Source: Thermoanaerobaculaceae bacterium (GTDB lineage Bacteria; Acidobacteriota; Thermoanaerobaculia; Multivoradales; UBA5704). From it: a stretch of DNA of 64,000 bases. Both the position numbers and the translations under genes were made by a program. The notes under the pieces are model-generated. The model saw only the letters and a list, made by a program, of their open reading frames with translations. It did no database searches and was not told the DNA's origin. Where the stretch lies: assembly GCA_963712665.1 (NCBI GenBank), contig CAVQIV010000022.1, positions 279,215 through 343,214 of the forward strand, in the 5' to 3' direction. Below, in pieces: positions 7,105-19,600 of this stretch. Numbering within the stretch: position 1 is the first letter of the stretch; each line of letters starts with the position of its first letter.

Positions 7105-10100
7105 CCCGATCGACCAGCCGTCCGAGGCGATGTGGTGGAAGGTGACGAGCAGGACAGTGCTCCAGGGCTCCCAGGCGCAGCAGCGTCACCCGCAGCATCC
7201 ACGGCGGGCTCGCCTCGCTGGCTGCCAGCGCGAAGGCCCGTGTGGCCTCCTCCTGGGCCAGCCGCCGCGCAACAGTGTCACGGGTAGCGGCCGGCAGCGC
7301 CGATAGGTCGATGGCCGGCAAGGGCCGTGGCCGCCAGGGAGCGATCACCTGCACGGGGCGACGGTTGCGCCCCTCGGCGAAGCCGGTGCGCAGCACCTCG
7401 TGCCGGCGCACGATCTCGCCGATGGCAGCCTCCAGAGCCGCGGTGGCGAGGCGCCCCCGCAGACGCACGGCGCCCGGCATGTTGTAGAGGGCGCTGCCCG
7501 GCTCCAGTCGGTCGAGGAACCAGAGCCGCTCCTGGGCGAAGGAGAGCGGCAGCTCGACGTCCACAGGCAGCGGCCGGGGCAGCGGCACGAGCGGCGGAGC
7601 CGCCAGCCTCGGCGCGGGCTGGACGGCGGCCGGCGCCATCGTGGCCGCAGCCAGGGGCTCGCCCAGCTCCGCCGCCAGCTCTTCGATCGTCGGCGCCTCG
7701 AACAGCCGGCGGATCGGCAGCTCGACACCGAAGGCCGCGCGGGCACGGGAGACGACCTGAGTGGCCAACAGCGAGTGGCCGCCCAGCTCGAAGAAGCTGT
7801 CGCGCACGCCCACCTGCTCGAGCCCCAGCACCTCGGCCCAGATCTGCGCCAGCGCCGCCTCGGCGGCGTTGCGGGGCAGGACCCGCTCGCGCGCCCCTTG
7901 CTGAGCGGGATCGGGCGCGGGCAGGGCTGCCTGGTCGAGCTTGCCGTTGGCGTTGAGCGGCAGCGACTCCATGACCACGAAAGCCGACGGCACCATGTAC
8001 TCCGGCAGCTTCTGCTTGAGGAAGGCGCGCAGCTCGCCGAGCGTCTCCTCACCCTGCTCTTCGAGCACCACGTAAGCCACCAGACGCCTGCCTTCCCGCG
8101 CCGCCGGCGCCACCACGGCCGCGTCGCGCACGGCCGGATGGCTCGCCAGCACCGTGTCGATCTCCCCCAGCTCGACCCGGAAGCCGCGGATCTTCACCTG
8201 GGTGTCGATCCTGCCGTGGTACTCGATCTGCCCGTCGGCGAGATAGCGCGCCGAGTCGCCCGTTCGATAGAGCCGCGCTCCCGGCTCCGCGGCGTACGGA
8301 TCGGGCACCATCTTCTGCGCCGTCAGCACGGGGTCGTTCAGATACCCCCGGGGCACGCAGGCGCCCGCCGCGTACAGCTCGCCCGGCACGCCCACGGGCA
8401 CCGGCTCCAGGTGCGCGTCGAGCAGGTGGATGCGCACGTTGACGATCGGCCGGCCGATCGACGGGATGGCCGGCCAACTCCCCGGTACGCCGGCCAGCGT
8501 CAGGGCGCTCACCACGTGGGTTTCGGAGGCGCCGTACTGGTTGTGCAGCGAGCAGCCGGGCAGGCGCTCGAACAGCAACCGCACCGTGGGGTTGACCTGG
8601 AGCTGCTCGCCCGCGGTGATCACCTCGCGCAGGCGGGAGGGGAGCCGATCCTGCTCCGCCGCCGCCTCGGCCAGGTGCTTCAGGGCCGCAAACGGCAGGT
8701 GCAGCCGCTCGATCTCCTGAGCCTCCAGGAAGGCGTTGAGCCCCACGACGTCGCGCCGCACCATCTCGCTCGCCAGGACCAGGGTGCCGCCCGAGCACCA
8801 GGAGGAGAACACCTCCTGGAACGAGACGCAGAAGCCGAAGGTGGCGAACTGCACCGTGCGCGCCACCCCCGAGAGCGATGAGCGCCGGAGCTGCCAGTCG
8901 AGGAGGTTGGCGAAGGCCCGGTGGGTGACCAGGATCCCCTTGGGCATTCCCGTGGAGCCCGAGGTGTAGATGGCGTAGATCGGATTGTCGAGCTCGACGC
9001 CGCTCGCCGGATCCTCGCCGCTCTCGCCCGGGAACGGCTCGGTGTCTCCTTCCAGCAGGATGGCGATCGCCTCCTGGCCCGGGAAGTGGCGCAGCAGCGA
9101 CTCCTGGGTGATCAGCGCCCGCAACCTGGCATCCTGGATGATGAAGGCCAGGCGGTCCACCGGGTAGGCTGGGTCGAGGGCCACCATCCCACCGCCCGCC
9201 TTGAGCACCGCCAGCATCGACACCAGCATGCCCAGCGAGCGCTCCAGGCAGATACCCACCAGCGACTCGGGACCGACCCCGCGCCGGCGCAGGCCGTGCG
9301 CCATGCGATTGGCGCGCCGGTTCAGCTCCTCGTAGGTGAGGCCATGACCCTCGAACACCGCCGCTACGGTCGCAGGCGAGCGCCGGACCTGCTCCTCCAC
9401 CCAGCGGTGGACGCAGGAGGTCGCTCCTGCCACGACGTCCGTGCCGTTCCACTCCACCAGCACCTGGTGGCGTTCGGCGGGCGAAAGCAGCGGCAGGGCC
9501 GTGAACGGCCGGTCCGGCGCGGCGACCGCCCCGCGCAGCAGCGCCTCGTAGTGTCGCGACAGGCGCCGCGCCGTGGCCGGATCGAAGAGGTCGGTGTTGA
9601 ACTCGACGAGCCCCAGGAGCCGCCCCTCGCTCTCGTGCCAGAAGACGGTCAGGTCGAACTTGGCCGTGGCGGTGTCGACCGCGAGCGGGCGCACCACGAG
9701 ACCTTCGATCCCGGCCGCGGCCTGCGGCTGGTTCTGGAGCACGCACATCACCTGGAAGAGCGGATTGCGGCTCATGTCCCGCTCGGGCTGGATCTCCCCC
9801 ACCAGCTTCTCGAACGGCAGCTCCTGGTGGGCGTAGGCCTCCAGCGCCACCTCGCGCACCCGCCGCAGCAGGGGCTGGAAGCCCGGATCACCCGCGAGAT
9901 CCGTGCGCAGCACCAGGGTGTTGGCGAAGAAGCCGATCAGCCCTTCCACCTCGGCGCGGTTGCGGTTGGCGATGGGCGAGCCCACCGGCACGTCCACCTG
10001 GCGGGTGAGCCGGGAGAGCAGGGCCTGGAACCCCGCCAGCAGCGTCATGAACAGGGTGGCGCCCTGGCCGCGGGAGAGGGCGTGAAGAGCCGCGGTCAGC

Positions 10101-16676: not shown

Positions 16677-19600
16677 ACGGCGTAGTCGGCGTACTGGATG
16701 GGCAGCGGCGGCAGCGGCGAGGGCCGGCCGGCCGCGAACGCCTCGTAGAGGGCCGCCACCTCCCGCAGCAGCACCTGGCTCGACCAGCCGTCGGAGACGA
16801 TGTGGTGGAGGTTGAACAGCAGCGCGTGCCGCTCGGGCTCCAGCCTTACCAGGGCGAAGCGGACGAGAGGCCCGCGCGCGAGGTCGAACGGCCGGCGGGC
16901 GTCCCCGGTGGCGAGCTCGCCCAGAGTCCGCTCGCGCTCGGCCGGCGGCAGCACGGCCAGGTCCACCAGCGGCAGCTTCACCTCCGGATGGGGCGCGATC
17001 GCCTGGAACGGGCGCCCATCACGGTCGCCGAAGATGGTGCGCAGAGATTCGTGCCGGCCCACGATCTCCCGCAGCACGGCGGCGATCACGGGCACCGACA
17101 GCCGCCCCGCCAGCAGGACGGCCATGGGGATGCTGTAGAAGGCGCTCCCGGGCTCGAGCTGCTCCAGGAACCAGAGCCGCTCCTGCGCGAAGGAGAGAGG
17201 CAGGCCGGCCTCGCCCGCGGCAGGGCGTGGCACCGGCGCCAGGGTAGCTGCGGCCTCACCGCCGGTCGCCGCCAGGACGGCGGCCAGCCCCGCCACCGTG
17301 GGGCTCTCGAACAGAGCCCGTAGCGGCAGCTCGCGGCCGAAGACGCGGCGCACCCGGGAGACGAGCTGGGTGGCCAGCAGCGAATGCCCACCCAGCTCGA
17401 AGAAGCTGTCGAAGATCCCCACCCGGCCAAGCCCCAGGATCTGGGCGAAGAGCCCGGCGAGCAGCTCCTCCTCCGGGCTGCGCGGGTCGGTCTGGAGACC
17501 CGAGCCGGCGGGGAGCGCCGGCGCCGGGAGGGCCCGGCGATCCAGCTTGCCGGTGGGGGTGAGCGGCAGCGCGTCCAGCTCCGTCCAGAGCGTTGGGACC
17601 ATGGGCTCGGGCAGGTGTGAGCGCAGGTGGTCGCGCAAGTCACCGGGAAAAGCGCCAGGGAAGGCAGTGAGGCCGTTGCCCGGGCGTAGCACCACGTAGG
17701 CCGCCAGGCGGAGGTCGCCCGGGGCGAGCTGCCGCGCCACCACCGCTGCAGCCGCCACGGCTGGATGGGTGGCCAGCGCCCCCTCGATCTCCCCCGGCTC
17801 GATGCGGAATCCCCGGATCTTCACCTGCTGGTCGATGCGGCCCAGGTAGTCGAGCGCGCCGTCCGCCAGCCGGCGCACGAGGTCGCCCGTGCGATAGAGA
17901 CGGCCGCCCGCCACGCCGCCGAAGGGATCGGGGATGAAACGCTCGGCGGTGAGCTCCGGCCGGCCGAGATAGCCGCGCGCCAGGACCGGGCCGCCGATGT
18001 GCAGCTCGCCCGGCACGCCCAGCGGCACGAGCTCTCCGTGGCGATCCACGACCTGGGCAGCGACCTGGGCCAGCGGCCGGCCGATGCGCGAGGCCGGCAT
18101 GCCGGGCGCCAGCAGGGCGGCGGTGTCGTCCACCGTGCACTCGGTGGGCCCGTAGAGGTTCCAGAAGCGGACACGCGGCCGGGCCAGCGCCGCGTCGCGC
18201 AGCTCCGCGTCGATCGCTTCTCCCCCCACCAGCACCCGGGAGGGGAAGGCGCCCCCAGCGTCCTCTCCGCCGAGGCCGGCGGCGAGCAAAGCCCGGAGCT
18301 GCGACGGCGTGCAGTCGAGCACGTCGAGCCGGTGGCGGCGGACGTAGTCCACCAGCGCCGCGGGATCGAGCCGCACTTCGGAGGTGAGCACGTGCACGCA
18401 GTGCCCCCAGGCGAGCTGCACGAGCTGCTGGACGGAAGCGTCGAAGGAGATGGAGGCGTTGAGGCTGACCCGCAGGGGCCCGGCCTCCCCTTCGTACACC
18501 GTCTCGCGCAGGGCGCGGGCGAGGTTGACCACCGCGCCATGGCGCACCACCACTCCCTTGGGCCGGCCGGTGGAGCCCGAGGTGTAGATGACGTAGGCGG
18601 CGTGCTCCGGCCCGGAGCCGCTCGCGGGGGCCGCGGCGCTCTCTCCGGTCTCCTCGACGAGGACGCTGCGCACGCCCTGCGGCACGCGGCCGGCCAGCCG
18701 CTCCGAGGTCACCACCACGGGCGCGCCGGAGTCCGCCAGCAGCCAGGAGACCCGCTCCGGCGGATAGGCGGCGTCGACGGGCACGTAGGCTCCCCCCGCC
18801 TTGAGCACGCCGAGGATAGCCACCACCGCCGCCGCCGAGCGGTCGAGCAGCAGGGCGACCCGCACCTCGGGGCCGACGCCGGAGGTGCGCAGCCGCAGCG
18901 CCAGACCGTTGGCCAGCCGGTCGAGACGGCCATAGGTCAGCTCCTCGCCGGCGCAGACGACCGCCAGCGCCTCCGGCGTGGCCGCGGCCCGGGCGGCGAC
19001 GAGCTCGTGCAGGCAGGGCCCGAGGGCCGCGGGGGCCGTCGCCGGCGGCGCGCTCCACTCCCTGGCGAGCTGATGGGTCTCGGCGGCGCCGAGCAGCGGC
19101 AGCTCGCCCAGGCGGCGGGCCGGAGCGGCCACGGCGCCGGCGAGCAGGACGCCGAGATGGCCGGCGATCCGCTGCGCGGTGACAGGGTCGAAGAGGTCGC
19201 AGTCGTGCTCCAGCACCGCCGCGAGCCCTTCCCCCTCCTCCCACATCGTCAGCATCAGGTCGAACTTGGCCGTGCCGGTCTCGATCGCCATCGGCTCCAG
19301 CCACAGACCGGGCAGCGCGAGTGGAGCGGGGGGGGTGTTCTGGAACGCCAGCATCACCTGGAAGAGCGGGGTGTGGCGCAGGTCCCGGCGCGGCGCCAAC
19401 TCCTCCACCAGGCGCTCGAACGGCACCTCCTGGCGGTCATAGGCGCCGAGGGTGGTCTCGCGCGCCCGGCCCAGCAGCTCGGTGAAGGAGGGGTCGCCGG
19501 CGAGATCGGTGCGCAGGACCAGGGTGTTGACGAAGAAGCCGATCAACCCCTCGGTCTCCACCCGGGTGCGGCCCGCCACGGGCGAGCCCACCGGCGCCTC

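Follow-up and report, generated by a model that had tools for sequence, protein, structure and literature searches.

Does a broken copy of an NRPS module mark a gene that is dying, a duplication made by the assembler, or a sound module that has been badly read? The 64-kb window (the whole stretch of DNA analysed here) raises this question on its minus strand, where two similar modules of one synthetase lie 6.4 kb apart, one in a clean frame and the other split many times. A preliminary description proposed either that two modules were duplicated recently and one copy has since decayed, or that the repeat is mis-assembled or mis-polished. We consider it probable that the two modules are an old duplication, since partly homogenised, that the breaks in the second copy reflect poor consensus and that the frame of the synthetase is continuous.

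Domain organisation of the synthetase

The NRPS is of the lipopeptide type, with an AMP-binding loader and 12 or more modules, nearly all C-A-T. Judged by its nearest relatives, it belongs to a soil-type, uncultured Acidobacteriota genome that is Thermoanaerobaculia-like. Module domains were mapped by phmmer on three-frame translations, with Pfam families assigned on intact ORFs. Copy 1 is module 9 (7667..10786, minus strand; C 10786–9461, A core 9394–8339, A C-terminal subdomain 8164–7940, T 7852–7667), in frame within ORF 7028..12664, the clean, uninterrupted 1878-aa frame noted previously. Copy 2 is module 7 (14060..17200, minus strand; C 17200–15873, A core 15804–14749, A C-terminal subdomain 14548–14331, T 14242–14060), which is spread over all three frames. 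Between them lies the non-duplicated module 8 (10862..13972, minus strand; C 13972–12623, A 12562–11555, T 11050–10862). The domain map places Condensation, AMP-binding (with AMP-binding_C) and PP-binding in C-A-T order, including in the frame-split copy. Module 5 has no C domain.

NRPS core motifs comprise HHxxxDG in C, TSGSTGxPKG, YRTGD, KIRGxRIELGEI and NGK in A, and GGHSL in T. Both copies carry the C-A-T core motifs, copy 2 once it is read on the codon grid of copy 1. At the A4 motif, modules 7 and 9 depart from the canonical Asp (FDxS, the α-amino-binding position), reading FCVSFQE, with Cys where LgrA has the Asp of FDGS; the motif is kept in the relatives P0003, P0005 and P0011. The substrate class is therefore uncertain. 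Since the two modules share this unusual A domain, both presumably load one and the same building block, which would then occupy two peptide positions. NRPS specialists may find the Asp-less A4 of the duplicated A domain, together with the C-less module 5, more interesting than the repeat itself.

Modules 7 and 9 as a paralogous pair

BLASTN and global alignment both give a single colinear match between 6523–11618 and 12960–18032. Within it, 7674–10700 and 14064–17100 share ~90% DNA identity overall (82–100% per 100 nt), dropping to 55–80% in the flanks. The ~3-kb C-A-PCP repeat reported earlier is thus real and colinear, aligning extensively between 7.6–10.6 kb and 14.0–17.0 kb, although only ~470 nt of it deserve the term near-identical. 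The reported offsets (6403–6414) agree with our measured drift from 6390 to 6414. The shared block does not begin at mid-C, as had been thought; it begins near the N-terminus of the C domain (10786/17200) and finishes at the end of the T domain, mid-C being where the near-identical tract starts. Pairwise matrices show that the 7/9 pair alone is elevated (C 92%, A core 88%, A C-terminal subdomain plus T 86%), all other pairs lying at 65–79%; identities of module 8 and of the flanking modules are not raised above background.

The differences between the copies fall mostly at third codon positions (16.3%, versus 5.7% and 7.4% at the other two), marking them as real paralogs that diverged under purifying selection. 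Against an outgroup, branch-specific substitutions are near-equal (116 in copy 1, 128 in copy 2). The sole usable outgroup is P0003, on contig L159 (70% aa and ~84% DNA identity), a short 8.8-kb Illumina contig that may itself be collapsed. It is colinear with modules 5-6-X-10, exactly two modules fewer. Scans for the same or a closely related locus returned, as best among the matches listed, 64% aa identity in genome contigs and 58% in metagenome contigs.

A near-identical tract within the C domain

The N-terminal lobe of the C domain holds a tract of ~470 nt (16645..17100, partner 10231–10700, minus strand) with 97–100% identity (96–100% per 100 nt) and no indels, its exact runs reaching 110, 95 and 73 nt. 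The upstream edge lies ~55 residues into the C domain. Identity is mosaic: in bin 10490–10190 the copies are 98% identical and each is 83–84% identical to the outgroup, versus 87% and 86–87%, respectively, in bin 9290–8990. Across 300-nt bins the paralogs are mostly nearer each other than the ortholog; with this one outgroup, they are not so in 9290–8990 or 8090–7790, and only marginally so in 8690–8390. Because the copies are no nearer each other than the MAG ortholog in several bins, the duplication appears old and its homogenisation patchy. From these comparisons the repeat is best read as an older paralogous pair, and not as a recent two-module duplication. The duplication would date from about the time when the nearest sequenced relative split off; recombination within the gene, or gene conversion, would later have made the pair partly uniform again, with the clearest trace in the C-domain tract. 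Such a mosaic is the pattern of concerted evolution or gene conversion between modules, and cross-copy polishing could also yield the tract; we regard it as a candidate for either a recent conversion tract or a polishing product.

A dense indel patch in copy 2

The frame breaks of copy 2 belong to a dense indel patch (12689..16601, minus strand), delineated by frame switches and by three-way alignment with copy 1 and L159. The latter two are colinear without a gap over 3.1 kb, so that every indel column is specific to copy 2: 28 inserted and 4 deleted bases (32 columns; insertion excess P = 2e-4). G or C accounts for 25 of the 28 inserted bases, mostly without an identical adjacent base, and all four deletions are in homopolymers. 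The C-terminal half of the module 8 C domain adds ~6 further 1-nt indels and one 8-nt insertion. Codon-phase Viterbi decoding places 16 frame switches between 16298 and 12709, far exceeding the "six or more" frames first counted. These are 16 of the 30 detectable switches of the NRPS in 9.8% of its length (P = 2.7e-9), with switch-free stretches of 8.8 kb (25090–16299) and 5.6 kb (12708–7156). Over its 3.9 kb the patch carries ~1.3% indels, against ~0.3 indels per kb elsewhere, making it about forty times denser.

The patch does not follow the repeat. Its edge at 12.69 kb, at the end of C8, lies 1.4 kb outside the repeat; the other, at 16.6 kb (about residue 200 of C7), omits the repeat's last 0.5 kb and stops short of its most identical tract. 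A strain-variable indel bounded by homologous sites was considered and rejected, as the ends fall at non-homologous positions and 3.9 kb is not a multiple of a module.

Projected onto the codons of copy 1, copy 2 retains 919 of 1,043 identical residues (88% aa) and has no stops. The corrected sequence keeps HHIVSDG, TSGSTGxPKG, a 22-residue motif and GGHSL, and GC3 periodicity is fully kept, each frame segment giving a strong phase signal. Copy 2 has more branch-specific changes at the first two codon positions than copy 1 (71 versus 38, P = 6e-4), an excess that relaxed selection would also fit. The identical broken 1878-aa product occurs once in a public protein collection, its source being a 367-kb unannotated NCBI/ENA contig; the breaks are therefore present in the deposited sequence.

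Frame breaks elsewhere in the window

The preliminary description placed the breaks at 12.6–16.7 kb. That zone is real (12.69–16.60 kb), and further breaks occur at 0.5–2.5 kb, 4022, 7156, 30.4–31.1 kb, ~39.4 kb and ~45.9 kb. Paralog-guided indel calling at ~75% identity produced spurious calls in controls and was used only where Viterbi switches agreed; it did not confirm a compensated excursion at 25182–25091.

The C domain of module 10 contains an isolated 1-nt insertion (7156, minus strand; a T, non-homopolymer) in the L159 DNA alignment, also visible as adjacent tblastn HSPs in frames −1/−2 and as a Viterbi switch at 7155/7156. This insertion ends the true frame of the 1878-aa ORF. Modules 11–12 (1..4022, minus strand) form a second, looser noisy patch with seven switches (4022, 2452, 2037, 1955, 1480, 687 and 535) and unique 1-nt indels at 2451 and 2035. 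Three successive +1 switches interrupt the C domain of module 2 (30367..31083, minus strand; Viterbi and paralog comparison), two of them (31076 and 30561) coinciding with a single inserted A unique to that module. As these bases are inserted within the C domain, the apparent gene start at 30406 is artefactual.

Genes outside the NRPS are affected as well. An smc-like gene (43186..46726, plus strand) has a +1 switch near 45904 by Pfam and Viterbi: the Pfam SMC_N profile matches at positions 2–136 in the ORF starting at 43186 and at 92–220 in ORF 45905..46726, leaving the N- and C-terminal halves of the ATPase head in different frames. A macB-like ABC permease gene (37441..39900, plus strand; Pfam MacB_PCD and FtsX, Viterbi) contains a compensating indel pair (39398/39491), with a stop at 39420 that comes from the out-of-frame stretch. 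Single-base indels are thus the error type shared by modules 2, 10 and 11 and by the smc-like and macB-like genes. A third noisy patch, suspected at 59.8–62 kb from a cascade of overlapping plus-strand ORFs, was rejected; stitching the frames resolved it into small genes, two tandem pairs of paralogs that lie in different frames, with no frameshifts. These small genes have no Pfam match.

Origin of the repeat and of its frame breaks

Had a two-module 6.4-kb unit been duplicated in tandem recently, modules 6 and 8 (or 8 and 10) should be as alike as 7 and 9, and they are not: 7/9 stand at 86–92%, 6/8 at 67–78% and 8/10 at 69–75%. Identity is 67% between the A cores of modules 6 and 8 and 74% between C8 and C10; the A core of module 8 is nearest those of modules 3 and 11 (77–78%), and its C domain is without a close paralog (72–76% to every other C in the cluster). 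A later swap of the module 8 A domain could be invoked for the present differences, and several features would suit such a history, including the constant 6.4-kb spacing, the two-module shortfall of the relative, an A C-terminal subdomain plus T in module 8 slightly nearer that of module 6 than background (78%), and ~900 nt upstream of the block still at 67–83% per 100-nt bin (mostly 73–83%). Neither C8 nor the A8 core is a recent copy, the outgroup bins speak against recency, and the relative's shortfall could just as well reflect a deletion, or its 8.8-kb Illumina contig could have collapsed between the 7/9 repeats during assembly. With P0003 the module 8 A core shares only 27–64% aa identity; the A domain that P0003 has there matches module 6. 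We judge a recent duplication, one of the two origins first offered, to be unlikely. Far less credible is that the assembler made copy 2 as a second module 9 from noisy reads, even with noise in one copy only and a highly identical clean copy 6.4 kb away: the differences concentrate at third positions, unique module 8 separates the copies, the noise extends into unique sequence, and each copy has its own substitutions, making copy 2 a distinct sequence and no noisy image of copy 1. Mis-assembly in this sense is effectively refuted.

For the old paralogous pair, there remains the question of whether the organism itself carries the breaks. Genuine pseudogenisation, in which the synthetase is inactivated and module 7 with part of module 8 is decaying, would account for the presence of the frameshifts in the deposited sequence, their scatter through the rest of the NRPS and the excess of position 1 and 2 changes in copy 2. 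A dead megasynthase is expected to decay along its full length, against which stand the clustering of the switches and the long stretches free of them. Indels that arise naturally in bacterial pseudogenes favour deletion and are far outnumbered by substitutions; copy 2 has seven times as many inserted as deleted bases and almost no surplus substitutions, so the near-equal substitutions with many indels form a spectrum opposite to that of natural mutation. Nonsense codons are absent after correction, the motifs are all intact, GC3 periodicity persists and the smc-like gene is frameshifted too. Decay of one copy, as first suggested, is accordingly improbable. We are similarly doubtful that the dense patch is real or marks a thinly covered segment of a minor sub-population, the lineage having been caught gaining, losing or inactivating modules 7–8; were this true, the relative's two-module shortfall would represent natural module-indel polymorphism, with the 7/9 repeat as its mediator. 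Most likely, judging by the character of the indels, the breaks in copy 2 stem from an unpolished or low-quality consensus and not from a dying gene. The earlier suggestion of mis-polishing survives to that extent, but the limits of the noisy patch are not those of the repeat, and the non-repeated smc-like and macB-like genes carry the same type of error. The organism is predicted most likely to have one continuous, functional reading frame through the region. BGC miners and gene callers would break this synthetase into at least six gene fragments, and one of its modules could be mistaken for a decaying duplicate, where the evidence points to one long functional assembly line.

Comparison with known systems

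The breaks resemble the residual indel errors of long-read (meta)genome assemblies in that single-base indels outnumber substitutions, deletions fall in homopolymers, non-repeat genes are split too, with an otherwise undamaged coding signal. They differ in the dense patch, which is insertion-biased and mostly non-homopolymeric; to our knowledge, non-homopolymer G/C insertions are not every long-read platform's textbook error.

GRINS, reportedly described by Nivina et al. in 2021, are said to be repeats of skewed base composition that favour gene conversion within assembly-line synthases. The 7/9 copies are likewise repeats within an assembly-line gene and could support gene conversion; they differ in the absence of intense nucleotide skew. 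No GRINS-like skew was found over either copy in 300-nt windows: GC skew spanned −0.09 to +0.15 and AT skew −0.30 to +0.04, within the NRPS-wide range (mean ± SD, GC 0.004 ± 0.061, AT −0.135 ± 0.103).

Concerted evolution of NRPS modules is documented, with the syringopeptin NRPS and the calcium-dependent lipopeptide synthetases as cited examples (Medema et al. 2014, PMC4256081). Compared with the internal module duplication and concerted evolution of NRPS/PKS systems described there, the present locus involves one pair among 11–12 modules, non-adjacent, with an unrelated module between, at a modest identity of ~90%. It agrees with them in having a C-A-T pair far nearer each other than any other module, and in a mosaic identity that includes a near-identical tract, which intragenic recombination or conversion is expected to leave on top of a duplication. 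A module pair of ~90% identity is ordinary for NRPS genes, and the 7/9 pair adds one natural example of where such genes recombine, with a tract edge within C and a block end at T.

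Modular organization of the synthetase

A single very large NRPS, encoded on the minus strand, fills the window's initial 36.7 kb (G+C 73%), with direct-repeat families spaced at ~3.2 kb and Pfam matches to Condensation (C), AMP-binding (A), AMP-binding_C and PP-binding (T) domains in its long ORFs. Single-domain queries, run against each of the three frames of the minus strand, located a loading AMP-binding domain at about 36.6–36.3 kb (minus strand), followed by modules 1–11 and the C domain of module 12, which is cut by the window's left edge. Module 5 consists of A and T alone; all the others have the order C-A-T. 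Just 172 nt separate the module 4 T domain (22504–22325, minus strand) from the module 5 A domain (22153–21131), giving a C-A-T-A-T arrangement (window 22504–21131). This junction sits within an uninterrupted 4741-aa ORF; the missing C domain could be genuine or the product of an assembly collapse.

Modules 7 and 9 are an exceptional pair of paralogues

Module 9 (copy 1; C 10786–9461, A 9394–8339, T 7852–7667) and module 7 (copy 2; C 17200–15873, A 15804–14749, T 14242–14060) flank module 8 (13972–10862), all on the minus strand. The direct repeat reported in the preliminary description exists: BLASTN matches 6523–11618 to 12960–18032, and global alignment of the core (7674–10700 with 14064–17100) gives an overall identity of about 90%, with successive 100-nt stretches ranging over 82–100%. 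The offset between copies drifts from 6390 to 6414 along this core, reproducing the 6403–6414 noted before. "Near-identical", the term then used, suits one tract (10231–10700 with 16645–17100; 97–100% identity, zero indels, exact runs of 110, 95 and 73 nt) and overstates the core as a whole. Outside the core, identity drops to 55–80%, a level typical of any two modules. Across all pairwise domain comparisons 7/9 is the sole exceptional pair (C 92%, A core 88%, A C-terminal subdomain plus T 86%; other pairs 65–79%). We looked for GRINS-like nucleotide skew and found none.

One outgroup alone proved useful: a Thermoanaerobaculia MAG contig of 8.8 kb, assembled from Illumina data (NRPS protein HYX23921.1). 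Mismatches between the copies amount to 16.3% at third codon positions and 5.7% and 7.4% at the others (a 2–3-fold excess), and over the 2.5 kb compared with the outgroup, copy 1 carries 116 private substitutions and copy 2 carries 128. Because of this third-position excess, the substitutions private to each copy and the unique module lying between them, modules 7 and 9 are real paralogues and not an assembler's double image; the mis-assembled repeat proposed earlier is contradicted on all three points.

The shared A domain is itself distinctive. Its A4 motif reads FCVSFQE in module 9 (about 8790–8810) and module 7 (about 15200–15220), the other modules having FD(A/L/G)(A/S)V; its A5 motif is NQYGASETH. 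The cysteine of FCVSFQE aligns with the aspartate of FDGS in LgrA, and the A4 aspartate normally binds the substrate α-amino group. Since the A4 variant is kept in the outgroup protein and two further relatives (P0003, P0005 and P0011), this duplicated domain is a real, unusual subtype. In all likelihood modules 7 and 9 incorporate one and the same building block twice into a lipopeptide of 12 or more residues.

Frame breaks concentrate in copy 2

Frame switches were called by a three-state codon-phase Viterbi model trained on the clean part of the sequence. Thirty were found over the 36.7-kb NRPS, 16 of them between 16298 and 12709 (binomial P = 2.7e-9 for clustering). Three-way alignment of both copies with the outgroup, which is more sensitive, shows copy 1 and the outgroup to be colinear and gap-free across the whole block; every gap column is specific to copy 2 (28 inserted and 4 deleted bases, 16601–14246). 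The inserted bases are G or C in 25 of 28 cases, most without an identical neighbouring base, and all four deletions trim a GGG or CCC run; the excess of insertions over deletions is significant (P = 2e-4). Copy 2 is thus frame-broken as first described, and the "six or more" frames counted then were far too few. The identical broken 1878-aa product is found once in the public protein collection, on an unannotated NCBI/ENA contig of 367 kb.

The patch stops at 16601, short of the most identical tract; at its other side it outruns the repeat and takes in the C-terminal half of the C domain of module 8. Unique 1-nt insertions sit here at 13170, 13020, 12757, 12707 and 12689, together with one deleted base at 12778 and an insertion of 8 nt at 12850 (minus strand), in agreement with the Viterbi switches. 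The codon-phase model also reports short out-of-frame excursions (85–92 nt) at 36129–36045 and 25182–25091 (minus strand), in NRPS ORFs that are open on either side. Pairs of mutually compensating indels may be hidden here, as high-GC sequence lacks the stop codons that would reveal them; for 25182–25091, paralogue comparison gave no confirmation.

Consensus error versus decay

Decay of copy 2 had been put forward as one source of these breaks. Removing the copy-2-specific bases yields an intact C-A-T module with 919 of 1043 residues as in copy 1, no stop codons and all catalytic motifs. About 30 indels are private to copy 2, yet its private substitutions barely outnumber those of copy 1 (128 versus 116); in bacteria natural indels are far rarer than substitutions and biased towards deletion. 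Any frameshift kills a megasynthase downstream, and natural decay should then spread; the flanking stretches of 8.8 kb (25090–16299) and 5.6 kb (12708–7156) contain no Viterbi frame switch. Lesions of this same kind occur sparsely through the NRPS (single-base insertions of T at 7156, as judged against the outgroup, and of A at 31076 and 30561, and 1-nt indels at 2451 and 2035; minus strand) and in non-repeated genes. An smc-like gene (43186–46726, plus strand) has a +1 frame switch near 45904, which puts the two ATPase-head halves out of frame with each other, and a compensating indel pair at about 39398 and 39491 breaks a macB-like gene. This recurrence sets a background of about 0.3 indels per kb, the patch being about forty times worse.

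One result runs counter to an entirely technical origin: at codon positions 1 and 2, copy 2 carries 71 changes of its own, versus 38 in copy 1 (P = 6e-4). A substitution error of about 1% within the patch would account for this excess, but relaxed selection would do so equally well. Given the intact corrected module, the indel-heavy, insertion-biased spectrum, the clean flanks and the same lesions elsewhere, including in non-repeated genes, we consider the apparent decay to be quite probably an assembly-quality artefact whose frame breaks lie outside the biology. Among the homologues of the 1878-aa product there are further unannotated NCBI/ENA entries whose contigs are very long; this suggests, short of proof, that the deposited sequence is a long-read metagenome assembly.

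Neighbouring genes

The macB-like ABC permease gene (37441–39900, plus strand; MacB_PCD and FtsX domains) adjoins the NRPS, and its product is a likely lipopeptide exporter. Also beside the NRPS, and divergent from it, a 1073-aa single frame (39821–43042, plus strand) combines cytochrome P450, AMP-binding and AMP-binding_C_3 domains; either a genuine fusion or the loss of a stop between two genes could account for it. The smc-like open frame runs by chance into a DinB_2-family gene (about 46804–47238), creating a spurious 1350-aa ORF. At 59848–61084 (plus strand), small paralogous genes in differing frames are arranged as two tandem pairs, one sharing ...FREVFL...LRAAVADLRH... and the other ...AAARLSGVPLQVWL... 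/ ...AASADGLRSVGSWL...; a Pfam search of these genes gave no match. A candidate third noisy patch at 59.8–62 kb was rejected, as separate tandem paralogous genes here mimic a frameshift cascade.

Age and origin of the duplication

A recent duplication of two modules, as initially suggested, would involve the whole 6.4-kb unit, the remainder of which shows no raised identity: modules 6 and 8 agree at 67% in their A cores and 74% in their C domains (C domains of 8 versus 10 likewise 74%), and the module 8 A core is nearest to modules 3 and 11 (77–78%). In 300-nt bins, the copies are 98% identical to each other and 83–84% to the outgroup at 10490–10190, yet equidistant at 9290–8990 (87% mutually, 86–87% to the outgroup). 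The original interpretation is borne out in part: a consensus-quality fault is probable and decay improbable, and neither a recent duplication nor a false repeat is supported.

The nearest relative, the outgroup contig (L159, DASQYU010000326.1), is colinear with window 21340–16295 and 11632–6151, and so its module order is 5-6-X-10, as against 5-6-7-8-9-10 in the window. The 7/9 repeat may have mediated a natural gain or loss of two modules, or the short-read assembly may equally have collapsed here. Among the genome and metagenome contig matches listed, none exceeded 64% and 58% amino-acid identity, respectively, all being distant homologues. The best tract has its upstream edge ~55 residues inside the C domain, and the whole block ends downstream at the T domain end; intragenic homologous recombination would keep or renew the 7/9 similarity.

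The synthetase is previously undescribed; its module pair is real and ordinary for an NRPS. An identity mosaic of this kind results when patchy gene conversion follows an old duplication, behaviour documented in NRPS and PKS genes (PMC4256081).
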